DNA of 64,000 nt from Eledone cirrhosa (lineage: Eukaryota). Below are positions 29,139 through 59,102 of this stretch, piece by piece; position 1 is the stretch's first letter, and each line of letters opens with the position of its first letter. Made by a program: the position numbers and the translations under genes. Under the pieces are notes generated by a model that was given only the letters and a program-made list of their open reading frames with translations, was not told the DNA's origin and did not search any database. The stretch is taken from NCBI GenBank assembly GCA_964016885.1, contig OZ024742.1, forward strand, positions 371,070,001 through 371,134,000, in the 5' to 3' direction.

Positions 29139-31910
29139 TCAAGGATCAATTTCCCCCTCGTCCTTCTGCATATGAAAGTCTGCTGTCCAGGTTGGTGGTT
29201 TGCAACTTCTTTGCGATCTCCGCAGTGTTGGGGCGGCACTTTGAGTTTCCTCTTCCTCGGAGTCCGTTGACACAGTGATTCTATGGACATCCAGGACATG
29301 ACGTGGTACTCCGTCCACGGACACATTGTTCTGGGAATTTACGGTCATCACCCATTGAGATGTGCAACGTGCATCTGGGGGCTTAACCCAGACTTCTTCG
29401 CCCACCTGCACGAATGCACTCTCTCTCCCCATTGGCCATTGTGGTGGCGTGCATGGGTGCCGCCACTCGTATCTGAATACTGCTCTGTGTGGCACTGATT
29501 CCTCGACCTGTTCCACCCGAGGGGACATGTTGTACCAGAACACTGCCTCCATTGGTGAGATATGGCCCCGCTCCGCCATTGCCTTGATCGTCCAGTGGTG
29601 TCACTCCACAATTCCATTCCCGCTCGGCCTGTGTGCTGCTCTGAAGAAACGGTTCACCTTCCATCCATCGAGCATCTCCCTCAGCGCCTCCGAGCGGAAC
29701 GCTGCGCTGTTGTCCATCAGCAGTTCGTCCACAGGGCCCCGCTCCAAGCAAAACTCTCTCAACGTCCACATGATTTCCTCGGCCGTTCCAGTCTTCATCT
29801 CCCTCCATATCGCCATCCGTCCTGGTCCACAGTCGACCATCGAGAGGTACGTTCCCCGTCGGTAACGCGTTACATCCACCGCCAATCGCTTCCAGTCACG
29901 ATCCACCGGGAGGCTTCCCGTTTCGTGCACACCCGGGGCGGGATCAATGGACTGACATCAGACGCAGCCTCTAACCACTCTTTGAACACTGTGTCTGTTA
30001 ACGCCCGAGTCGATTCTCCTGGCTAGGAACAGGCTCCTATCCACTCCCATGTGATGCATGTCATGCAACCCTTTCAGCCGACACACGGCAGCTATCTCAT
30101 CTTCTACCTCCTCCGGCGCTTCCATCCAGGCTTTCTTCACCCTGTTTAAGACGTCCGCCCTATTTTTCTCTGAGGGCACGAAAACTACGCTCAGCCTCAG
30201 GTCGAACTCGGTGGCCAGCTCTCCTAAAGTTCCTAGGCGGCACTTTATCAGCATCTCCGCCGCCCCTCTCTTCTCACTGGTGAGCACTGATCTCACCCAT
30301 CCGAGTACAGTAGCTGAGTCGGTGCATATCTTGATGGTGCGCAGTCCCCACTTCAGGGCGAGGTTCACCCCTCTCAACACTGCGTCCAGTTCGGCCACAT
30401 TGATGTGGTTGCAGTCGTCCTTCTTCCTAAGCCAGGCTGCATCCTCGACCTCAACACCTCCTATCTCCAACGTGACACCCAGCGGTATGCTGCTGGCATC
30501 GCACCATACGGTCCCACTCTGCGATTTGGGAACATACCAGCGTCCCCGCACTGGGTCGTCGGCCTTCACCCTCCCCACGATCTCCTGCATCATGGCCACC
30601 GTCCTCTCTCCCACTCTGTCACTCCAAGTCACTCCTCCCGCTCGTCTCTTGACATAGCTGCATGCCGTCCGGAGCCACCCAGCGATCGGGTAGTGACCCA
30701 CCAACTTTCCACACACCGAGAAAAGCTCCCGGCTACTCATACTTGGGCCCAGTTCTGGAACTTCATTTCCCCTCTGGAATACCAAGACGCCCGTCCTGTC
30801 TCGCCGTAGCCTAAGTCCCAGCGCGGCTCCTCCCTCCAACGCTTCTGATGGCTTCGCAGCCAGTCCATACCCCTGTAAATGGCTCGTAACCTCTGCTGCC
30901 GACACCACAGACTCGTCCACTAGGATGTCGTCAATGTAGGAGTTAGTGGCCCTCTTCATCTTGTCGGCCTTTCCCAGAATGGTCTTAAGGACCGCCGCCA
31001 TGATCTTCGGTGCGGAGCTCAGCCAGAAACCGAGCCTGGTCAGGCAATATGTCCGGCCCTTATACCTGACCAGCTGATACTGCCAGAGCTTCTCATCTAT
31101 ATGCAATTGCAAGTATGCCGACTTTATATCTACGATTGCTGAACCCCCAGTCATGCGTCTCCACTCACGCAGGGTTTCCCCACAGACATCCGTGACCTCG
31201 CCACCCGTGTGGCATGACACGTGCTCGTTCAGCTCCCGAAAGTCCAGCACCGGCCTCACCTTGTTCTTCGTGGGTTGCGCCACCGCCATTAACAGCAATA
31301 CTTCGCACTTCACCTCCTCTTTCCAGTGAAGCAGTATGCCCTCCTCAATCCATCTCTCTACCTCTTGCTTGAACTCGCTCCTAATGTTTCCCTTCAATGT
31401 GTGTTGATAGCAGCCCACTTTGGTCTTCAGTGTTGGTGGTTCTCCCTTCCAGTACCACTCAACAACCCATCGCTGCCATTCGAACACGGCCTTGAAGTCT
31501 TTGTCCTGCACAGTGTAAGCGGGGTATTTCTCCTCGTGGGCCTTCTGGCTCTCCTGTCGCGTACTCACAGCGCATACCGATGCAGCGCCGCCAAACGACA
31601 CACCGACATTGTTCACTGTGACGCCTCCTAGACGGCCAATTGTGTCCATGCCCATAACCACGCCAATCCCATCCACCATGTTGTCAACTACGATGGCAGA
31701 AAGCCTTATTTTCCTTCCCCGTACCGCCATCTCCACCTCGCTGCGACCTCGGCATTCAATTTTCCTGCTGTCGACTGCCCTTACACTGCTCTTCCCTCTC
31801 CACCGCTGCGCCACCCCTGCGGTCACCAGTGTCGTCGTACAGCCCGTGTCCACGAGGGCTCGCTGTGGCTTTCCCCTCACGAAGACTTCCAACACGGGCA
31901 GCGCCTCTAC
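29139..31910 (-). pseudogene. pol: pol polyprotein (protease, RT, RNase H, integrase) with two internal in-frame TGA stops
   Basis: ALVDTGC (protease), LDFRELN and YIDD (RT), WCDAS/HINVAELDAV/TDS (RNase H), H-x3-H...C-x2-C, then AVDVT/LMDN/GNGIVE (integrase). ORFs 29958-31895, 29601-29930 and 29139-29579 share one frame, separated only by TGA at 29958-29960 and 29601-29603. Confidence 0.92.
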
Positions 31911-31958
31911 TCATAAGGGGCAACTACCGGCGCAGTAGTTCCCCTTGGATCGTTTCCC
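31901..31958 (-). promoter_or_regulatory. -1 programmed ribosomal frameshift signal (G GGA AAC plus stem-loop/pseudoknot) at the gag-pol junction
   Basis: Heptamer GGGAAAC is correctly phased in the gag frame (31958-31952). A 5-nt spacer is followed by stem AAGGGG-AACTAC / GTAGTT-(G)-CCCCTT, and loop GCGCC is complementary to downstream GGCGC. pol is in the -1 frame. Confidence 0.8.
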
Positions 31959-32665
31959 TGGTCGCAGTTAGTAGCGATGTGGCCTGGTCGCTTACACCGG
32001 TAGCATATTATTTCCGGCCTTGACTCTCTACAGTCTCTCGCCATGTGCGGGCCCTGGCACCTAAAACAGCGACCTCTAAAGGTTCGCGGGTGACCGCGTG
32101 CCGTGGTTGCCTCCCTTTCACCATTTCGCTGCCAGCTGTCTTGAGCCTCTGTAGTTGCTATCGCCGTGACACTCTTCTTGGCATCTTCTGCTATGATCCG
32201 GGCTTGTTCCACCAGTGAACACATTTCCATTTCTTTGTAACCCGGGACTTGCTGCAGTTTCACCGCTATGTCGTCTGGAAATCCATTTATGAACGCCAAC
32301 CGCACCGTGCGTTCGCATTCCACCTGATATCCAGCCAACATGGCCAATCGCCGTATTTCCGCTGCGAAAATGTCAACGCGTTCACCGTTCCATCTAATTC
32401 TTGCCAGCTTAGCAAAAGCGGCTAACGGTCCCTCTGCGAACGCTTCCATCATGTGCCTCTCAATCTTTTGCGCATCTCTTTGGCTGTGTTCATCTAACTC
32501 AAGGAAGAGTACCAACGTGCCCCCCTCGAGGTACAGTGCCATGAGGCCAGCCACATCTACCTTCTGTAAGCTTGTGACTAGCCGGACTTTTCGCAGCCAA
32601 GCGACAACATCGCCTTCCCCGGTAAATGCCCTGATAGCTTCGCTTGTTCGTAGTCTCGTTGCCAT
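31907..32665 (-). CDS. gag: Gag-like protein, 252 aa, two CCHC zinc knuckles
   Basis: Intact ORF with CFRCQGPHMARDC and CYRCKRPGHIATNC, lying between the PBS and pol. Confidence 0.92.
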   Translation of the reverse strand: MATRLRTSEAIRAFTGEGDVVAWLRKVRLVTSLQKVDVAGLMALYLEGGTLVLFLELDEHSQRDAQKIERHMMEAFAEGPLAAFAKLARIRWNGERVDIFAAEIRRLAMLAGYQVECERTVRLAFINGFPDDIAVKLQQVPGYKEMEMCSLVEQARIIAEDAKKSVTAIATTEAQDSWQRNGEREATTARGHPRTFRGRCFRCQGPHMARDCRESRPEIICYRCKRPGHIATNCDQGNDPRGTTAPVVAPYE

Positions 32666-32775
32666 ATCCTAATTTGTCTTGCGGTACGTGATAAAAAAAA
32701 CAAAACAGACTCCTCTCTGTTTTTCCAGTAGCTTTTTTTTTTTTCTTTTTTTTTTCAATCAGATCTGTTTCCAGT

Positions 32776-33361: not shown

Positions 33362-36118
33362 TTTGATACCAAACTGCCTGAAACTACCCCTGGTTCTATG
33401 GTACAAAGCTGTTCATTTTGATACCAAACTGCCTGAAACTACCCCTGGTTCTATGGTACAAAACTGTTCATTTTGATACCAAACTGCCTGAAACTACCCC
33501 TGGTTCTATAGTACAAAGCTGTTCATTTTGATACCAAACTGCCTGAAACTACCCCTGGTTCTATGGTACAAAGCTGTTCATTTTGATACCAAACTGCCTG
33601 AAACTACCCCTGGTTCTATGGTACAAAGCTGTTCATTTTGATACCAAACTGCCTGAAACTACCCCTGGTTCTATGGTACAAAGCTGTTCATTTTGATACC
33701 AAACTGCCTGAAACTACCCCTGGTTCTATAGTACAAAACTGTTCATTTTGATACCAAACTGCCTGAAACTACCCCTGGTTCTATAGTACAAAACTGTTCA
33801 TTTTGATACCAAACTGCCTGAAACTACCCCTGGTTCTATAGTACAAAGCTGTTCATTTTGATACCAAACTGCCTGAAACTACCCCTGGCTCTATGGTACA
33901 AAACTGTTCATTTTGATACCAAACTGCCTGAAACTACCCCTGGTTCTATAGTACAAAGCTGTTCATTTTGATACCAAACTGCCTGAAACTACCCCTGGTT
34001 CTATGGTACAAAACTGTTCATTTTGATACCAAACTGCCTGAAACTACCCCTGGTTCTATGGTACAAAACTGTTCATTTTGATACCAAACTGCCTGAAACT
34101 ACCCCTGGTTCTATAGTACAAAGCTGTTCATTTTGATACCAAACTGCCTGAAACTACCCCTGGTTCTATGGTACAAAGCTGTTCATTTTGATACCAAACT
34201 GCCTGAAACTACCCCTGGTTCTATGGTACAAAGCTGTTCATTTTGATACCAAACTGCCTGAAACTACCCCTGGTTCTATAGTACAAAACTGTTCATTTTG
34301 ATACCAAACTGCCTGAAACTACCCCTGGTTCTATAGTACAAAGCTGTTCATTTTGATACCAAACTGCCTGAAACTACCCCTGGTTCTATGGTACAAAACT
34401 GTTCATTTTGATACCAAACTGCCTGAAACTACCCCTGGTTCTATAGTACAAAGCTGTTCATTTTGATACCAAACTGCCTGAAACTACCCCTGGTTCTATG
34501 GTACAAAACTGTTCATTTTGATACCAAACTGCCTGAAACTACCCCTGGTTCTATAGTACAAAGCTGTTCATTTTGATACCAAACTGCCTGAAACTACCCC
34601 TGGTTCTATGGTACAAAGCTGTTCATTTTGATACCAAACTGCCTGAAACTACCCCTGGTTCTATGGTACAAAACTGTTCATTTTGATACCAAACTGCCTG
34701 AAACTACCCCTGGTTCTATGGTACAAAGCTGTTCATTTTGATACCAAACTGCCTGAAACTACCCCTGGTTCTATGGTACAAAGCTGTTCATTTTGATACC
34801 AAACTGCCTGAAACTACCCCTGGTTCTATGGTACAAAGCTGTTCATTTTGATACCAAACTGCCTGAAACTACCCCTGGCTCTATGGTACAAAACTGTTCA
34901 TTTTGATACCAAACTGCCTGAAACTACCCCTGGTTCTATAGTACAAAGCTGTTCATTTTGATACCAAACTGCCTGAAACTACCCCTGGTTCTATGGTACA
35001 AAACTGTTCATTTTGATACCAAACTGCCTGAAACTACCCCTGGTTCTATGGTACAAAACTGTTCATTTTGATACCAAACTGCCTGAAACTACCCCTGGTT
35101 CTATAGTACAAAGCTGTTCATTTTGATACCAAACTGCCTGAAACTACCCCTGGTTCTATGGTACAAAGCTGTTCATTTTGATACCAAACTGCCTGAAACT
35201 ACCCCTGGTTCTATGGTACAAAGCTGTTCATTTTGATACCAAACTGCCTGAAACTACCCCTGGTTCTATAGTACAAAACTGTTCATTTTGATACCAAACT
35301 GCCTGAAACTACCCCTGGTTCTATAGTACAAAGCTGTTCATTTTGATACCAAACTGCCTGAAACTACCCCTGGTTCTATGGTACAAAACTGTTCATTTTG
35401 ATACCAAACTGCCTGAAACTACCCCTGGTTCTATGGTACAAAACTGTTCATTTTGATACCAAACTGCCTGAAACTACCCCTGGTTCTATAGTACAAAGCT
35501 GTTCATTTTGATACCAAACTGCCTGAAACTACCCCTGGTTCTATGGTACAAAGCTGTTCATTTTGATACCAAACTGCCTGAAACTACCCCTGGTTCTATG
35601 GTACAAAGCTGTTCATTTTGATACCAAACTGCCTGAAACTACCCCTGGTTCTATGGTACAAAGCTGTTCATTTTGATACCAAACTGCCTGAAACTACCCC
35701 TGGTTCTATGGTACAAAACTGTTCATTTTGATACCAAACTGCCTGAAACTACCCCTGGTTCTATGGTACAAAGCTGTTCATTTTGATACCAAACTGCCTG
35801 AAACTACCCCTGGTTCTATGGTACAAAGCTGTTCATTTTGATACCAAACTGCCTGAAACTACCCCTGGTTCTATGGTACAAAGCTGTTCATTTTGATACC
35901 AAACTGCCTGAAACTGCCCCTGGTTCTATGGTACAAAGATGTTCATTTTGAAAGTGTTTATACAGATCTAAAAACCTTTCACCATAATTTTATGTAAGAA
36001 CTTTTAAGTTACCTTTAAAACATCGACTTAATAATGAGGAGGTTAAATCCCTTCAAATTCTTATTTTGAAAATCATAGGTAGTGTCTTTCATTAGAAATA
36101 TGATAATGAAAGGGTTAA
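33362..36118. mobile_element. TTAA-type (piggyBac-like) MITE whose left subterminal 55 bp is tandemly amplified
   Basis: The array continues into non-repetitive sequence ending GAAAGGG-TTAA (TTAA at 36115-36118). The body and repeat unit are homologous to the reverse complement of the element at 46991-47233. Confidence 0.65.
33366..35950. repeat. Minisatellite, 47 copies of a 55-bp unit
   Basis: Unit ATACCAAACTGCCTGAAACTACCCCTGGTTCTAT(G/A)GTACAAA(G/A)CTGTTCATTTTG; 2585 bp / 55 = 47. Confidence 0.98.
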
Positions 36119-39397: not shown

Positions 39398-42090
39398 CAT
39401 CATCATCATCATCATCAACGTTTAACGTCCGTGTTCCACGCTTGCATGGGTTTGGACGGGGGTAGTCCCACTTGAGGCAAGAGTGATTGTCTTGCTCGCA
39501 TAGGACTGTCTGGCAGGTTTTCTACAGTTGGATGCCCTTCCTAACACCAACCACATTTACAGTGTGGGTCTGGGAGGTTTTTACCGTGTTGCCTACACGG
39601 CCACATTACAGCGTGGACTGTGTGTTTTTTTGTCGTGACACCTACACGATCTCATTTGTTTCGGCCTGGATGGCGCGGCACCAACATAACTTTACATAGA
39701 ACGGGGTGGTGTGGATGGGGTGGGGGTGGCGGCGGGAGGGGTGTATTTTGTTAGATATGCCTACTGGCAAGGCGGGTCTTCTCTGTTACTGAGTACCGCC
39801 AAAGGTCACGGTCCAGTGACATTGTCTTGGAGAGGTGTAAGTGTGTGAGGTCGGAGTTTATCAGCTCATCCCATGTTTTTCTAGGTCTGCCTATTCCGTG
39901 GCTACCGTCTATCTTTATTGCCCTGCACTTTGTAATACAGCTATCGACTTTCATGCGCATCACGTGTCCATACCAACGCAGCCTTCTCTCGAGTAAACAA
40001 CATCTGATCCCTCTTATCTCTAATTTTTTCCTTAGTTCGTTTATGCTTTGCCGTTCACGTATATTACTGTTACACATCCAGCGGAGCATGCAAGCTTCGT
40101 TCCTCTCTAGTCTGCGTATATCCTCTGCACACAATGCCCAGGTCTCACTACCATGCAACATTGCTGTTTGTATGCAGGCATCGTACAACCTGCCTTTCAT
40201 TTTTAGGGAGAACCCTTTAGCAGCTAATAGTGGTATAAGCTCTCTGAACTTTTTCCAACCAGTTCTGACTCTAGCTACAGTACTTTCAGAGCACCCTCCC
40301 CCACTGCTGATTTTATCGCCCAGGTAACGGAAGCTGTCCACTATTTCTATAGAACCCTCTGCGCAATTGAAAGAGCTAGTATTTTGTGGGCACTTGCTGC
40401 TACTTATTGCACCAGAACACCGGCCACATGTAAAGTCTATGTTCTTAGTTAGCTTACCTGTGATCCCACTACATCTTTTATGCACCCATACTTTGCATTT
40501 AGGACATAAGATGGAGTTTCTACCTACGCCTTTCCTACATACCGAGCACGACCATTTCCCAGAAGGGACCGCCGCCTTGTTTTCTTTCCTACAAACTAGA
40601 ACTTTGGTCTTAGCCAGGTTAATTTTAAGTCCTTTTGACTCTAGGCCGTGCTTCCATGTTTGGAATTTCTTCTCTAGCTCGGCCATTGATTCCGCTATGA
40701 GTGTCAGGTCGTCTGCGTATAGGAGTTCCCATGGGCAGCCTGTCTTGAACTCCTCTGTTATAGCCTGAAGGGCAATAATAAATAGTAGGGGGCTGAGAAC
40801 AGAGCCCTGATGGACGCCAACTTTTACGCTAAACTCTTCACTATATTCGTTGTTAATTCTAACCTTGCTGACTGTTTCTTTATACATGGCTTGTATAGCC
40901 CTCACAAGCCATTCGTCAACGCCTAGTTTTCTAAGAGCCCACCAGATAATGGAGCGGGGGACTCTGTCGAAGGCTTTCTCCAGGTCGACAAAAGCTAAGT
41001 AGAGGGGTTTACCTTTAGCTAGGTACTTCTCCTGTAGTTGTCGTACTATGAAAAGAGCGTCTGTGGTGCTTTTGCCTGACACAAACCCGAACTGCATTTC
41101 ATCTAGATCAATTCTCTCTCTGATTAGTTGCGCTATTACTTTTTCCGTGACCTTCATGACCTGGTCGATTAATTTAATGCCTCTATAGTTACTCCTATCT
41201 AGGGCGTCTCCTTTACCCTTATAACAGTTAACGATGATGCTGCTATGCCAGTCCTTCGGAACAACCCCATTCTGTACGACTTGGTTAACTATGCGGGTGA
41301 CCATGGTGTGTCCCACCGTGCCAGATGCCTTCAGCATCTCAGCAACTATTTCCGAAGGCCCAGCCGCCTTACCAGTCTTCATATCCTTGATTGCCTTACT
41401 TATTATACTCCCCTCGACTAACACTGCTGGTCCCTCTATCGGGTCGATAAGGGGGAGACTGTCTTTCTCCCATTTATTCTCCTCGTTTAGTAGCCTTTCA
41501 TAGTGACACTTCCAAGCTACCTTCTTATCAGTGTCGGTGATGGCAAGTATGCCATCATCGTTAAGTACACACTTCTCCCCGACAATATCACGGTTTTCCT
41601 TGACGCATTGCCTGGCAATCCTGAACACCTCACGTTTTTGGTCATCGCGTTGTAGAACATGCTTGAACTTTCTTTCCTCAGCTTCCCTTCTTGCTAAGTA
41701 CACTTCTCTCCTAGCTTCCCTCCTGGCCACTTGATAGTCTACTCTACTTCCCCCATCCCGCCATACTTTCCAAGCCTGCTTTTTGGCCTTAATTGACCCC
41801 TCCACCCTATTGTTCCACCACCATGTTACTCTCCTCCTGCCTACAGGCCTGCTCCAGCCACAGACTTCGTCTGTCGCCAACAGCAGGTTTGCTTTCAGAA
41901 ATTTCCACTGTCCCTCTATATTGTCCGATTCTAGATGCTCTTCCTTACTGTCGAAAGCATCAAGTAATATGCTTTGAAATTTATTTCTGGCTGTGGGGTC
42001 CTTTAGTTTCCATATTTTCCTCCTGAGGATAGTCCTCTTCTGCTGTCGAGTACGTCTCGTCCTGACTATGAGGTCGCTAATTATCAGTCT
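39398..42090 (-). mobile_element. RTE-clade LINE copy A, 5'-truncated, young, (GAT)n tail
   Basis: Uninterrupted ORF, a 3' UTR and a (CAT)n run on the plus strand at ~39398-39417. Confidence 0.95.
39751..42090 (-). CDS. RTE ORF (end of APE linker, RT with embedded PHD-type finger); no true start, 5'-truncated
   Basis: KAAGP, NYRGIKL, QFGF, FVDLEKAFD, GVHQGSVLSP, LYADD, FRYLG, RRLRWYGHV. The frame stays open 70 codons upstream of the listed start (RLIISDL...WKLKD). Confidence 0.92.
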   Translation of the reverse strand, partial: RLIISDLIVRTRRTRQQKRTILRRKIWKLKDPTARNKFQSILLDAFDSKEEHLESDNIEGQWKFLKANLLLATDEVCGWSRPVGRRRVTWWWNNRVEGSIKAKKQAWKVWRDGGSRVDYQVARREARREVYLARREAEERKFKHVLQRDDQKREVFRIARQCVKENRDIVGEKCVLNDDGILAITDTDKKVAWKCHYERLLNEENKWEKDSLPLIDPIEGPAVLVEGSIISKAIKDMKTGKAAGPSEIVAEMLKASGTVGHTMVTRIVNQVVQNGVVPKDWHSSIIVNCYKGKGDALDRSNYRGIKLIDQVMKVTEKVIAQLIRERIDLDEMQFGFVSGKSTTDALFIVRQLQEKYLAKGKPLYLAFVDLEKAFDRVPRSIIWWALRKLGVDEWLVRAIQAMYKETVSKVRINNEYSEEFSVKVGVHQGSVLSPLLFIIALQAITEEFKTGCPWELLYADDLTLIAESMAELEKKFQTWKHGLESKGLKINLAKTKVLVCRKENKAAVPSGKWSCSVCRKGVGRNSILCPKCKVWVHKRCSGITGKLTKNIDFTCGRCSGAISSSKCPQNTSSFNCAEGSIEIVDSFRYLGDKISSGGGCSESTVARVRTGWKKFRELIPLLAAKGFSLKMKGRLYDACIQTAMLHGSETWALCAEDIRRLERNEACMLRWMCNSNIRERQSINELRKKLEIRGIRCCLLERRLRWYGHVMRMKVDSCITKCRAIKIDGSHGIGRPRKTWDELINSDLTHLHLSKTMSLDRDLWRYSVTEKTRLASRHI

Positions 42091-45391: not shown

Positions 45392-46112
45392 TGTGCGCGT
45401 GTGTTAAAAGTTATTTTAAGTCACAGTTAAGCGATTTCTTAGAAATAAAACACTAAATAGAGAATTTTAAATATCTGTCCACTGCCGTTTGAATTTAATT
45501 AAGAACAGAAAGAGAAAAACTTAAACTTTCGGATCAAAGTTTTCTAAAGAAAATACATACACACGCATATACATACATTGTTATGCTTTCTGTTTTTGAA
45601 AGCAAAAAAGAAAACAGCTACACTCTGGTATATCATCACTACCATCACCTTTAAAACGAAAACACTTGTTAGACGTAGATTATTCGAAAAGTACCTTGGA
45701 GATAAGCAACCTAACTACGCAATTTTGATTTGAAGAACTCTATAAAATTATGTCATGCCACCCATTGACCAATAACTTCTGAAGTTGTAGGGGAACATTT
45801 GTGACTTACCGTGTAACTTGGTGGCACCCATCCCTTTCTACGTCTGAGATTTTTGTCACCGAGTTAGAAAGACAGACCGAAAGAATTGATCCCCAGAACT
45901 GGACTGGTGCTTTGTTTATTGACATCGAAAGGATAAAATGAGAATTTGACCTCGGCAGGATTTGAACTCATAGAACAAGAGAGCCGGAATTAAAACAGTC
46001 CACACATCGTTCTATCCGACGTTTTAACGACAGCTAATTCGCCACCTACAACTTGTAAAAAATAAAAATCAGGAAGAAAAGTACTCGAACATTCGTTCCC
46101 ATCCTGAAAACT

Positions 46113-46994
46113 ATGGCGATTTTCAAAGAACTGTTTCTGTCAACGAGACCATGGTCCTTTTCGGCCTCAGCTATTCCGAGTATCATTGGGATAATCCTGG
46201 CGACAAAAGATCACAACTCCAGTCCGACTTTGTCTCTTATTAGCAATACATTACTCACGGTAATTTTTATACATGCTGCCGGTAATTTGAACAATACTTT
46301 CTGTGATTTCATAAACGGAGTTGATAAGAAAGATTCCACACACGACCGAACCCTCACTGAAGCCAAACTAACCAAAGACCAGCTCCTATTGTTGTTAATC
46401 ACTTGTTATATTGATTCTCTTTTCTCATTCTCCTTCATCGTGGTTTATTCCTCGGCTTCTTATATCACCTTGATTATTCTGTATAGCCTGGGAATTGCTA
46501 GCAGTTTCATCTACACCGGTTGGATAGCCCTCAAATACAGAGCACTTGGCGATTTGTTGGTCTTATTAACGTTTGGACCTTTAGTAGCGGAGTTTTCTTA
46601 TCTCAGCTGTAGTGGAGTGTTGTCCGGAAGGACAGTAGTTCTAGTCCTTCCAATGGCAACTAATGCCGTTGCTATACTCAACGCCAACAACATGAGAGAT
46701 ATAACAGCAGATAGAAAATCAGGAATTCTCACTTTGCCCATGATACTTGGAACACACATTTCCCGTTGGATGATGATAGTGTTGCTTTTTTCGTCTTACA
46801 TAAATTTTCTCCTCATAATTGGAGTCACACATAACCTGCTCTTTGCTTTGCCGACGTTCACTGCACCTGTTGCGGCCCAGCTTTACAAACGTGTACATAG
46901 ACTTGACATGGTCGGACTTCCCGAGACATTGGCCAAACTAAATTTAGTGCAAGGTTTGCTCTACTGCTTCGCTCTTCTTCTTTCAAACATTTAA
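46113..46994 (+). CDS. UBIAD1/MenA-family prenyltransferase, divergent paralog, single coding exon, 293 aa
   Basis: RPWSFSAS, HAAGNLNNTFCDFINGVD..HDRTL, YTG..LKYRALGD, NNMRDITAD..GILTL motifs and many transmembrane segments. Confidence 0.93.
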   Translation: MAIFKELFLSTRPWSFSASAIPSIIGIILATKDHNSSPTLSLISNTLLTVIFIHAAGNLNNTFCDFINGVDKKDSTHDRTLTEAKLTKDQLLLLLITCYIDSLFSFSFIVVYSSASYITLIILYSLGIASSFIYTGWIALKYRALGDLLVLLTFGPLVAEFSYLSCSGVLSGRTVVLVLPMATNAVAILNANNMRDITADRKSGILTLPMILGTHISRWMMIVLLFSSYINFLLIIGVTHNLLFALPTFTAPVAAQLYKRVHRLDMVGLPETLAKLNLVQGLLYCFALLLSNI

Positions 46995-48743: not shown

Positions 48744-49951
48744 CAAGCCCCACTAGACAAAAGTCCAACCCTACCAAACAAAAACACGACAGTAAAAATA
48801 ATACAGAATTGGAATGTATAGTTTTTCGGAGCCCGGACTGCTGACCTCCTCCGTAAAATCGAATCAATAGCAGCCCGACAGAGGAAGGACCCCTGTTGCA
48901 GCGTGTGTCGCTGGTCCGCAGGGCACATCCGAAATACCACTCTGATCTAGGTGTAGAGTTAGTAAACCCCTCTCTTTCTTTGTCTAATAGTCCTTGCTCT
49001 TCCCCTCCTTTCCCCTCTCATTTATGACATTTATAATCCTTTCCAATACTGCTTTCTTTTTTCTTTACCAGGTAAATTACATTTAAATAATTGTTTCTAC
49101 TTTAGGCACAAAACTGGTACTTTATTTTATCGACCCCGTAAGGATGAAAGGCAAAGTCAACCTCGGCGGGATTTGAACTCAGATCGTAAAGGGACATAAC
49201 TATGCTGGAAAGCATGGCGTCCGAACCTCTACCGCCCTAAATTACATTTAAATAATGTTAACTATTAAACACTATAAATAGATTTGATTTATCTTATAAT
49301 GTTTTACTTTTTACTGTCTGATAGGAGTCGGGATTTTGTCTGGGAAGAAAGCAAAGCAAAAAGCAGAAAGAAAGACATGCACACTTCATTAAACACTATA
49401 ATAGGTAAAAGTGTTTTCCTCTAATAAACAGTTTTCAGGCAAACCAAAACACGCGAGATAGGTTAACCCCCTTTAACCTTTTGTTATCTAACAAGTTTCA
49501 AAGAGATTCTTCCACATTTGTCATCTCAAAGGACCGCGAGCATCCATTGTAAAATAAAATAATTATTAGATTCTCCAGTGAATCAATAGGAATCACAAAA
49601 TTTCGCCGGAGTTAAATTAGCAAATTTGGCGATATCCAATTTTAGCGGCCTAAATGCTGCTTACTTGAATGTATGAGGCTATTCCAACAAATTTACATTC
49701 CCCTTTTTTTAGCCGTTAAAAGAAATATAAATTTATTTATTGTTTTTTTTTTTGCGATTTATTTGCCACTGGGGCATAGATTTCTTTATTTGCCACGTTT
49801 TTGTTTGTTTGTTTTTTTGCGACCTTTCTGCCAGGGAGTACAGAGAGAGGGGGGTGCTCCCTTCTTCTCTTACCTGTACAAACCATTTGTTGGCCGGCGA
49901 CATATCCCCACAGTTTCCTCGTTCTTTCATACTTATCCTCTTCAACTACAC

Positions 49952-50090
49952 ATGGATATTTGTCTTACTGTGGAGAAGGAATTAGAAACAGTTTTATCAA
50001 AATTCACTGCTATTCGGGAACATACAAAGCGAACTTTGGGTGACATGCCAACTTCTGTTGATAATATAAGGAAGGTATTTATAAGTGAAG
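49952..50090 (+). pseudogene. RMND5: Captured first coding exon of an RMND5 (GID2/CTLH E3 ligase subunit)-like gene
   Basis: MDICLTVEKELETVLSKFTAIREHTKRTLGDMPTSVDNIRKVFISE(G) resembles the RMND5A/B N-terminus (recalled MDQCVTVERELEKVLHKF). It ends at a phase-1 GT donor (50091) followed by AT-rich intron-like DNA. Confidence 0.8.
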
Positions 50091-50144
50091 GTATTTATTA
50101 CATTTTGATTGCATTTTTATTACAACCACTAATACTTACTATTA

Positions 50145-50424
50145 TACCGAGGGGCCCTGCCCGTTCGGGAAAGGCTCTACAGACACGGATTCCGGGACGG
50201 AAACCCCTTGGAAAAGAAATGTCCCAGATGCGTTTGCAACGAGGAAACTGTGGGGATATGTCGCTGGCCAACAAATGGTCCTCTTCTTCCGATACCACTT
50301 CGAAAGAAGGATCAAGGTGGAGAAAAAGGCACTCAGTCCCAGCCAATTCCATGAAAGATGGGTGAAAGTAGCAATAATAGCCTGTGTAAGTGGGCCATCT
50401 CTCTATATCGGCTTGTACAGGTAA
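50145..50424 (+). mobile_element. Internally deleted L1/Tx1-like ORF2 C-terminal fragment inside the fold-back element
   Basis: YRGALPVRERLYRHG...CPRC..NEETV (zf-RVT start) is joined to LFFRYHFERRIKVEKKALSPSQFHERWVKVA...LYR* (stop 50422-50424). Confidence 0.75.
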
Positions 50425-51142
50425 GAGAAGAAGGGAGCACCCCCCCTCTCTCTCTCTGTGCTCCCTGGCAGAAAGGTCGCACACTTTCTACGGGGGTGTG
50501 TGTGACCCCAAAAGGCTAATAAATCGCAAAAAAAACAAACAAACAAAAAAGGGGCAAATAAAGAAATCTATGCCCCAGTGGCAAATAAATCGCAAAAAAA
50601 AAAACCAATAAATAAATCTATATTTCTTTTAACGGCTAAAAAAAGGGGAATGTAAATTCGTTGGAATAGCCTCATACATTCAAGTAAGCAGCATTTAGGC
50701 CGCTAAAATTGGATATCGCCGCAAATTTTAATAAGCGGGGGAGGGGGGCATTATTCAAGACCGAGGAGTAGCTGTGAGGAAAAAAAAACAAAAAAAACGG
50801 TGCTTCCGAATGAAGCCCTTCCCGGTATTTGCTTTGCGTCGAGTTACATACCTTTCCTTATCACTCTCGCCGTCAGCGAAAACCTATAAATAATTGTGAT
50901 ATAAAATAACATTCATCGTTGAAACCGACGAAAGCCTAGTCCATTCCAAATAATTAAACAGAGTTATGCCCCTTGTATCATGCCCATGAAAGTGAAATCC
51001 GTAAACGTATGCTAGTTAAGTTGGGATCCTTATTTCCCCGTGTTATTTTTGTTTTTTTAACATTATTGTCTCTAATCTCCCAGGTTTTTTCTAGTTCTAC
51101 TCCAGTAAACCTACAATCAAGACATTTTAGCTGTATTAATCA

Positions 51143-57526: not shown

Positions 57527-58471
57527 TCAGTGTTTTAGTGCAAATATACAGGCTAGAACATAAAGTAGTCCAAAAATAAAATTCAGCCGTGCCACTTTCC
57601 TGGGCAATTGTTCCAAGTGGCGGTAACGAAAATATCTCTCTAATTTAAAGGATTCAAACACTGTTAAGAGAGGTAGGAAATACCATTTGGAATAGTGTAG
57701 TCCCATGTAGACAAAGGCAATATAAGGCAAGAATAAAAGAGTCACAAACAATATATAGGAGCCAGTATGGCCCAGTAGAATGGCTAAGGTAACAATCCCA
57801 GCAGCTGTATCACTCTCCATGTGTCGAGTATTATTGCAATGAAGAACTGCTTCAGCACTGATAGCTAAAGGAATGGCGTAAAAAATGAGTTCGTTCGACA
57901 GTTTGCCGGTTTGTGAAAGAAAGGCGAACACAACAGTGAGAGGCCCGAATGTGAGGAATACAACCACATCTCCTAGAGCGATATACTTGAGTCCGAGACC
58001 TCCTGTGTAGAGGAAACTTCCAGATAGTCCTCCAAAGTAAATGAGAGCTAAGTGTTCCATACGAGCAGGTGACATATAGGCAAGCAACAAAAATCCACAA
58101 CATCCCAACACGTAAGAAAACCCTCCCAACCAGGCAATGTCGCCCGGCGTCAATACACAATCAACTAACGTGTTATGACTAGCATCTTTCTTTTTCTTGG
58201 AGTCGATTCCTCGGACATAATCGACATATGTGTTGACAAGGTTTCCAGCAGCGTGGACAGAGAGGGCTGTTAGACAAGTGACCAGTGATATAAGAAGGCT
58301 AAATTCGGCATGTTCCACATAAGCAAGGGCGCTTCCGAGAGCAACTGGTGTGAAAGATGACGTGAAGGACCACGGCCGCAGAGCTGCCAAGTATTTAGAC
58401 AATTCCTGTGAACGAGATGTTTTCTCTGGACGGTAGTGATTCTCATCTTTAACATGGCTATTATTTTGCAT
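57527..58471 (-). CDS. UBIAD1: UbiA prenyltransferase domain-containing protein 1 (UBIAD1/heix ortholog-like), single coding exon, 314 aa
   Basis: Long near-identical blocks to vertebrate UBIAD1 (ALRPWSF..TPVALGSALAY, EHLALIYFGGLSGSFLYTGG.G.KY.ALGD, AGIVTLAIL). ATG at 58471 with an in-frame upstream TAA. Confidence 0.95.
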   Translation of the reverse strand: MQNNSHVKDENHYRPEKTSRSQELSKYLAALRPWSFTSSFTPVALGSALAYVEHAEFSLLISLVTCLTALSVHAAGNLVNTYVDYVRGIDSKKKKDASHNTLVDCVLTPGDIAWLGGFSYVLGCCGFLLLAYMSPARMEHLALIYFGGLSGSFLYTGGLGLKYIALGDVVVFLTFGPLTVVFAFLSQTGKLSNELIFYAIPLAISAEAVLHCNNTRHMESDTAAGIVTLAILLGHTGSYILFVTLLFLPYIAFVYMGLHYSKWYFLPLLTVFESFKLERYFRYRHLEQLPRKVARLNFIFGLLYVLACIFALKH

Positions 58472-59102
58472 CACTTCAGTAGAAGTTTTTTAGCTTATGT
58501 AGAGTGTGGGATAGTGTTTCTAACACGTCCCTCTAATTGTGAAAAGCCACATATAACAGCGATCACTCAATAGAACTGATGATTCAGAAGAAACATTTAA
58601 AGAGGTGAGGGAGAGAACTATTAATAAATTTAAACACTTGATATTACAAAAATAGGAAATGACAAAGAAACGAAACGAAAAACGAAAATTAATATAACGC
58701 AAAGTCAATATAATAAAATTAATTATGAAACCAATCAGAATTGATCATTGATTAAAATAGTTTTTAAATATTATATCAATTATTAGAACCTAATACATTT
58801 AAACTCTATTAATCTTGAGTTTGAATAATGTTTAATGGAAAAATCAACGCAGTGTGTTTATATGGTAAATGTATATATATATATATGTGTGTGTGTGTGT
58901 ATAAATGTATAGTGAATACGTTTATGTTTCTGTGTATGTGTTGATGTTTGTATGTGTGTGTGTGTATGATAAATTGCCCGTCTGTGTCAATGTACGAATG
59001 AGTGTAAAAAAAGCACACATACACAAATATATATACATACAAATATATGCATATTTATATAAATCTCTATATATATATATGTGTGTGTATACATACATAT
59101 TA

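Follow-up and report, generated by a model that had tools for sequence, protein, structure and literature searches.

The window, by which we mean the whole stretch of DNA that was analyzed (64,000 nucleotides, G000:C3:371070001-371134000, from an animal genome of 3.0 Gb), opens with a 78-bp satellite of ~322 units (1-25156). It also holds LTR retroelement gag/pol-like frames on the minus strand (29958-32668, with protease, reverse transcriptase-like and DUF7047 matches), a 55-bp tandem array of 47 units (33362-35951) and a minus-strand LINE reverse transcriptase frame of 779 amino acids with a PHD-like finger (39751-42090). Two intronless UbiA prenyltransferase (UBIAD1-like) frames, one of 311 amino acids at 46059-46994 on the plus strand and the other of 320 amino acids at 57527-58489 on the minus strand, face each other, and between them lies the element described here. 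It is 1093 bp long (49628-50720), has the ends GGCGAT...ATCGCC and carries on both flanks a direct 8-bp duplication, GCAAATTT. The host site is a dispersed repeat, and the 11 paralogous flank repeats that were fetched are all uninterrupted, the left flank running into the right flank across a single 8-mer copy. The window element is therefore a true insertion with a target site duplication (TSD), and the length, the GG...CC ends and the perfect 8-bp TSD given in a preliminary description of this DNA were borne out. The features of the element are as follows.

49620..49627, no strand: left copy of the 8-bp TSD, GCAAATTT; a single copy at the empty sites (11/11 paralogues)
49628..49702, plus strand: left Merlin terminus, the terminal inverted repeat (TIR) proper of ~75 bp, starting GG; the same end flanks the PF12762 transposase in L088, L091, L101, L118, L127 and L128
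49703..49923, minus strand: remnant of the mirrored left arm, with antisense Tx1 3′-end repeats and ORF2 tail; deletions of 48 nt and ~130 nt
49924..49951, plus strand: last 28 nt of the captured RMND5 5′ leader, directly after the large left-arm deletion
49952..50090, plus strand: captured RMND5 first coding exon, ATG, 46 codons plus G; parent at G000:C5:79536336
50091..50141, plus strand: GT donor and first ~50 nt of RMND5 intron 1; parent spliced at the same GT in run X4
50142..50517, plus strand: Tx1 LINE ORF2 C-terminal piece and 3′ UTR, internally deleted; 79-81% identity to free LINE copies L140/L141
50518..50645, plus strand: subterminal repeats from the natural Tx1 3′ terminus, and A tracts; free LINE copies end likewise
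50646..50720, minus strand: right Merlin terminus, ending CC, from comparison of the arms
50721..50728, no strand: right copy of the 8-bp TSD; same empty-site evidence

The inner limit of the left Merlin terminus (49702) was set from the left end of L129. The two arms match over 126 bp at 98% identity without gaps and over longer stretches (257 + 42 bp on the left) with gaps, in keeping with the long TIRs first described, but only ~75 bp per arm is Merlin terminus and the remaining arm is Tx1-derived cargo. The motif of the subterminal repeats, GTGGCAAATAAA...ATCTAT, is also the end of free LINE copies.

Transposase is absent from the window copy, and ~620 bp of its left arm has been lost. The junction of its ~130-nt left-arm deletion is common to short derivatives of 370-460 bp. 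The junction of the large left-arm deletion carries a 3-nt GTT microhomology and recurs in L025 and L039, and the deleted form must therefore itself have transposed. Cargo in a loop, as described earlier, is not the family norm, full copies carrying the RMND5 exon in both arms. An ATG-initiated exon of 46 codons with a GT donor is present as described, but codon 46 and the additional GT at 50075 result from a local change found in the window copy only, and the parent and the family have 45 codons. No family was matched in a Pfam search with three window peptides.

The Merlin family and its transposase

The terminal 22-mer of the window element has 150 exact matches in the genome (75 forward and 75 reverse), against 0 for the control. 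We scored TSDs at 49 distinct end pairs taken from all fetched loci, a sample skewed to the best-scoring matches and to contig C1, and found a perfect duplication in 33, every one exactly 8 bp. Seven further pairs had one mismatch and nine had at least three, two of these nine being mispairings across nested copies. The TSDs were distinct from copy to copy. The element is thus one of many with these ends, contrary to the possibility that no other copies would exist. A count of 553-561 search candidates was rejected as a copy number; from exact pattern matches and read depth, the numbers are ~100 for exon copies and 150 for exact ends.

Elements range in size from 374 bp up to 3.8 kb and fall into three forms, namely, an asymmetric 2.9-kb form, mirror-armed forms with or without transposase (1.7 kb, arms of ~790 bp) and short deletion forms. 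In the asymmetric form, the order is end, transposase, RMND5 piece, Tx1 tail, end. The commonest cargo-bearing form is ~1.7 kb long, with arms of 764-810 bp that are 92-98.5% identical around a spacer of ~130 bp. We also observed that a Tx1-derived subterminal unit has grown to 73-bp and 57-bp tandem arrays in Merlin copies (L011:1686-3027 and L030:1200-1464, respectively). Nested or adjoining copies of the family at L091, L101, L123, L124, L128 and L036/L037 suggest local hopping.

A search of the genome with the PF12762 profile gave 150 scored matches, several of which adjoin cargo copies. The best-scoring Merlin families were rejected as the partner of the window element, having other ends. 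One transposase lineage lies between the window element's own ends and 8-bp duplications, in L088, L091, L101, L118, L127 and L128. Its 283-amino-acid frame in L118 (4320-5168) matched DDE_Tnp_IS1595 (PF12762) at 46.3 bits, against a cut-off of 27, and the D, D and E motifs are visible; a shorter piece of 222 amino acids had no Pfam match. Of 92 database relatives of the L118 frame, 91 carry DDE_Tnp_IS1595. Among 20 family rows there was no open frame of more than 286 amino acids, intact relatives having ~320-340.

In the available part of PMC8101967, Merlin is defined by GG ends, an 8- to 9-bp TSD and a DDE_Tnp_IS1595 domain. The window family has TIRs starting 5′-GG, 8-bp TSDs and a DDE_Tnp_IS1595 transposase between the same ends. 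On sequence grounds, then, it is a Merlin (IS1595-type) family and not a MULE, for its ends go with a PF12762 transposase. The preliminary guess of Merlin, made from the ends and TSD of the window copy, was correct.

RMND5-derived DNA was present in 14 of the 15 loci with a transposase 84-100% identical to the query, and the remaining one, L135, is truncated before the cargo; no cargo-free member of the window element's Merlin family was found among these 15. By comparison, RMND5-derived DNA occurred in 0 of 11 fetched loci of sister families (~55-75% identical), and the ends of those sister loci in which ends are clear differ from those of the window element.

Source and capture of the RMND5 and Tx1 cargo

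The best PDB match of the window peptide was to residues 1-31 of human RMND5A, at a weak E value of 0.083. A protein database search with the 46-amino-acid peptide and the Tx1 peptide gave no matches, although blanks from such a search are weak evidence. At the DNA level, the window is 92.7% identical to the real RMND5 locus over 218 bp, so that the peptide's assignment to RMND5 held. A CTLH search located the parent RMND5 gene on contig C5, with exon 1 starting at 79536336, and parent exon 1, exon 2 and the RING exon matched RMND5A with E values of 5e-4, 2e-12 and 3e-22, respectively. A 1435-nt contig of run X4, which was judged RNA-like only from this spliced contig, joins the parent exons over four GT..AG introns, the first of which uses the same donor as the cargo. 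With the parent on C5 and spliced from that donor, the window exon is therefore not the real first exon of RMND5, an alternative that would have undone the original description. The longest forms of the element hold parent bases C5:79536166-79536556 at 86-87% identity, a segment of ~390 bp made up of ~170 nt of leader, the exon and ~85 nt of intron; the window copy keeps ~50 nt of that intron. No Merlin end was found near the parent within the 140 kb searched.

We used the first 28 coding bases of the exon to count its copies and found 100 exact matches at 68 loci, including the parent (67 derived), on 14 contigs, against 0 for the control. At least two matches occurred at 30 of the 68 loci, mostly head to head. 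Read depth in the DNA-like run X1 was 641 over the exon versus 6 to 7.5 over unique flank, in agreement with the copy count. In run X6, which is labeled as another organism, the element-type exon had a depth of 250-517 versus ~14-17 on flank bins. Run X5 (organism B) yielded a divergent parent-type RMND5 contig, with 16 differences in 147 nt, as well as element-type contigs (window 49921-50517) with 1 difference in 129 nt at a depth of 3-9, without coverage of the termini; the latter may reflect contamination or horizontal transfer, and run X5 was accordingly left out of the argument. By the definition of Tan et al. (PMC8277862, as given in the available part), a Pack-TIR is a TIR element holding host DNA with an unlinked parent, as is found here, and with 67 loci besides the parent and distinct TSDs, the family is a multicopy one.

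The piece that follows the RMND5 DNA matches the end of ORF2 and the 3′ UTR of an abundant LINE. It lacks ~195 nt of ORF2 and reaches the LINE's natural terminus, the motif of which, repeated, builds the subterminal repeats. Comparison with free LINE copies thus confirmed a fused Tx1 ORF2 3′ end with a deletion. In the related free copy L145, ORF2 scored over the cut-off for RVT_1 and, at 25.3 bits, just below the 27.5 cut-off for zf-RVT, and its first Atlas match was "Transposon TX1 149 kDa protein family" (0.97). Judged from these matches, the LINE source of the tail is nearest to the Tx1 clade. Free Tx1 copies (L140-L161) end in (CTAT)n, and L140 and L141, of the subfamily closest to the cargo, have one common sequence after the 3′ end, which suggests a target-site preference.

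How the two pieces came to lie together bears on the route of capture. The retained intron had been taken to imply capture at the DNA level. It means that the source was unspliced, but a DNA source is not thereby proven, since a LINE template switch onto unspliced RNA fits too. We lean, by a modest degree, toward capture of RMND5 at the DNA level, by template switching or gap repair. A possible though less probable course is that the Tx1 reverse transcriptase, having begun at the 3′ end of its own RNA, jumped to an unspliced RMND5 pre-mRNA template and placed the chimera into Merlin behind the transposase gene, so that Merlin only amplified it. In line with that course, the RMND5 piece and the Tx1 tail abut directly, both in the sense orientation and with 4-5 nt of microhomology at the junction; the LINE piece is 5′ truncated and extends to its natural 3′ terminus; and the RMND5 piece starts in the transcribed leader. 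Sense chimeras of first exons and LINE-1 have been described in humans (bioRxiv 10.1101/2025.02.02.635956, available part). According to the same source, however, the human chimeras are mostly joined at splice sites and involve long LINEs, whereas here ~85 nt of intron was kept. Moreover, of the duplication that the RNA route predicts on either side of the RMND5-Tx1 block there is an 8-nt candidate that falls short of significance (p ~0.17 by shuffling and AT-matched windows), and at the 5′ junction of the block the 3′ end of the transposase recurs as a small hairpin, which would favor DNA template switching. The hairpin and the microhomology would both suit the FoSTeST origin of Pack-TIRs, in which DNA template switching precedes transposition.

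Mirroring of the arms and fate of the moved exon

The long forms bear on the probable order of events. L127, at 2894 bp with a TSD of one mismatch, is asymmetric and consists of a short left end, the transposase, the RMND5 piece, the Tx1 tail and the right end. L127, L123, L129 and L138 retain intron and LINE DNA that is missing from the mass-amplified form, which would therefore have come after the long forms. A copy of the right arm lies on the left side of the transposase in L084, L101 and L118, and in L088 the mirroring runs through the transposase itself. Sister-family arms extend into a reversed copy of the transposase end, which makes mirroring a habit of this Merlin clade. Other Merlin families of the same genome are likewise mirrored through or into the transposase gene (L086, L087, L089, L120, L121 and L134).

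The arms of one element resemble each other more than they resemble those of other elements. In 16 two-armed elements (32 arms, 744 columns), divergence was 1.6% within elements versus 2.1% between them, and 18 of the 40 variants seen in exactly two arms were in both arms of one element, where 3.2% would be expected. These private mutations common to both arms require arm-to-arm copying or repeated re-mirroring.

A history of the following kind would account for the forms. Some 390 bp of RMND5 would have been copied in behind the transposase stop codon, and a 5′-truncated Tx1 tail would have been joined to it through the short microhomology. Hairpin-templated repair or conversion would then have replaced the left end by a copy of the cargo-bearing right end. 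The 1.7-kb fold-back would have arisen when the transposase was lost, and it presumably multiplied recently, its copies being ~2% apart. The window copy would have lost its ~620 bp of left arm and then moved again, into a repeat between two UbiA-family genes.

All six exon changes from parent to family alter an amino acid, and within the family 16 of 18 are nonsynonymous, with 105 nonsynonymous and 30 synonymous sites; hence there is no purifying selection on the exon. Of 56 full-length exon copies, one or two of which may be counted double, the ATG is preserved in 54, the donor in 51 and an open frame across the exon in 50. Such retention is expected for young, best-scoring copies and may also be compatible with some use. 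A read-through frame of 125-150 amino acids from the ATG is present in 42 of the 56 copies and was rejected, as its exon part is not under purifying selection. The moved exon is likely a passive passenger without a job.

It is unlikely, in our estimate, that the exon is used, whether by splicing of the ATG exon to downstream host exons at some of the ~70 loci or by fold-back double-stranded RNA that silences or edits RMND5 transcripts. The donor and ATG kept in most copies would suit such use, as would the 30 loci with two exons, usually facing head to head. The window copy, on the other hand, does not have its exon within the long stem. In run X4, element-type contigs had a depth of 21-73 versus 99.5 for the parent mRNA. 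Parent introns had a depth of ~1-15 in the same run, and passive read-through of ~100 copies therefore suffices to explain the element depth. One X4 element-type contig (129 nt, depth 31.5) terminates with the exon's final base and another (depth 21.4) runs on into the intron, while in the DNA-like run X1 one contig spans this site. The break at the donor is a weak hint of splicing, and donor base changes in L052, L056 and L057 could give the same break. A wider scheme, which we consider a little more doubtful still, would join this to the LINE route as a two-step relay, in which the Tx1 reverse transcriptase made the chimera of its tail and unspliced RMND5 and put it into Merlin, and Merlin mirrored the exon and planted a first exon with ATG and donor at ~70 sites, some spliced to new partners or giving double-stranded RNA against RMND5.

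Relation to known gene-carrying transposons

The ancestral modules fully cover 47 of the 49 end pairs, with RMND5 and Tx1 as the only cargo there. The other two are accounted for by one SINE insertion and one mispairing across nested copies, and no third cargo was found among the 49. Because these 47 pairs hold no other cargo, a single capture followed by amplification is likely, rather than the shuffling of many exons by the family. A Pack-MULE-like family taking up a series of different host exons would share the long arms, the host-derived cargo and the high number of copies, each with its own TSD, seen here, but with this sole cargo and a transposase of the IS1595/Merlin type we regard it as very improbable. 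The preliminary picture of a Pack-MULE-like family carrying host exons in the plural was thus not upheld; what stands is that a Pack family has spread one host exon to 67 loci in an animal genome. In sum, we give a probability of roughly 85% to the reading that the window element is an internally deleted, noncoding Merlin copy with RMND5 exon 1 and a Tx1 tail, both of which were likely acquired a single time and were likely carried along passively by the family's transposase.

The family resembles the Merlin superfamily (IS1016/IS1595 related; Repbase Merlin-1_DR and Merlin-N5_DR) in its GG termini, 8-bp TSD, DDE_Tnp_IS1595 domain and internal tandem repeats, as far as these are described in the available part of PMC8101967. 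The TIRs of Merlin elements are given there as 24-462 bp, and as 1000 bp for the zebrafish families Merlin-1_DR and Merlin-N5_DR. The long arms found here differ from those of known Merlin elements in being captured host exon and LINE DNA, not transposon DNA. We found no gene-carrying Merlin in literature listings or in the papers named here. For Octopus vulgaris, two recently active Merlin families are reported, with capture unmentioned in the available part of the paper (PMC13282606).

Gene-carrying Pack elements had been thought of as mainly a plant matter; the available part of Tan et al. (PMC8277862) lists 370 Pack-TIRs in animals, 87% of them hAT or Tc/mariner. Four multicopy cases in reference genomes plus Ssk-FB4 are given there, the worked example having three copies. 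The word "Merlin" is absent from the main text and from the 372-row Pack-TIR table of that paper, where it appears only as a column head. Like the multicopy animal Pack-TIRs that it describes (Pack-hAT-N8_XT, with the CAPSL 5′ UTR, and Ssk-FB4), the present family carries 5′ DNA of a host gene whose parent is on another chromosome and was amplified by repeated transposition with distinct TSDs. It differs from them in having at least 67 loci, cargo in transposase-coding members and a cargo mirrored into both arms. Plant Pack-MULEs, as characterized in the same source, likewise have long inverted arms, a gene fragment with an intron and capture in trans, but they belong to another transposase superfamily and have many cargoes, whereas here there is one, AT rich and in the arms. 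With the first-exon/LINE-1 chimeric insertions (bioRxiv 10.1101/2025.02.02.635956, available part) the cargo shares a gene 5′ end fused in sense to the 3′ part of a LINE; unlike them, it has no significant flanking TSD, keeps its intron and owes its spread to the DNA transposon within which it lies. A literature search found no paper on TIR lengthening in Galileo.

Published multicopy gene-carrying DNA transposons of animals are few and have few copies, and we found no Merlin among them. For the present family the parent gene is known and there are at least 67 derived loci, and intermediates survive in asymmetric form, in mirrored form both with transposase and without it, and in deleted form. 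It is therefore a good natural test case for how captured DNA is turned into very long inverted arms and how the likeness of the arms is kept up. For the host gene there is a practical consequence as well, in that ~100 near-copies of RMND5 exon 1 will confound the mapping and annotation of RMND5.
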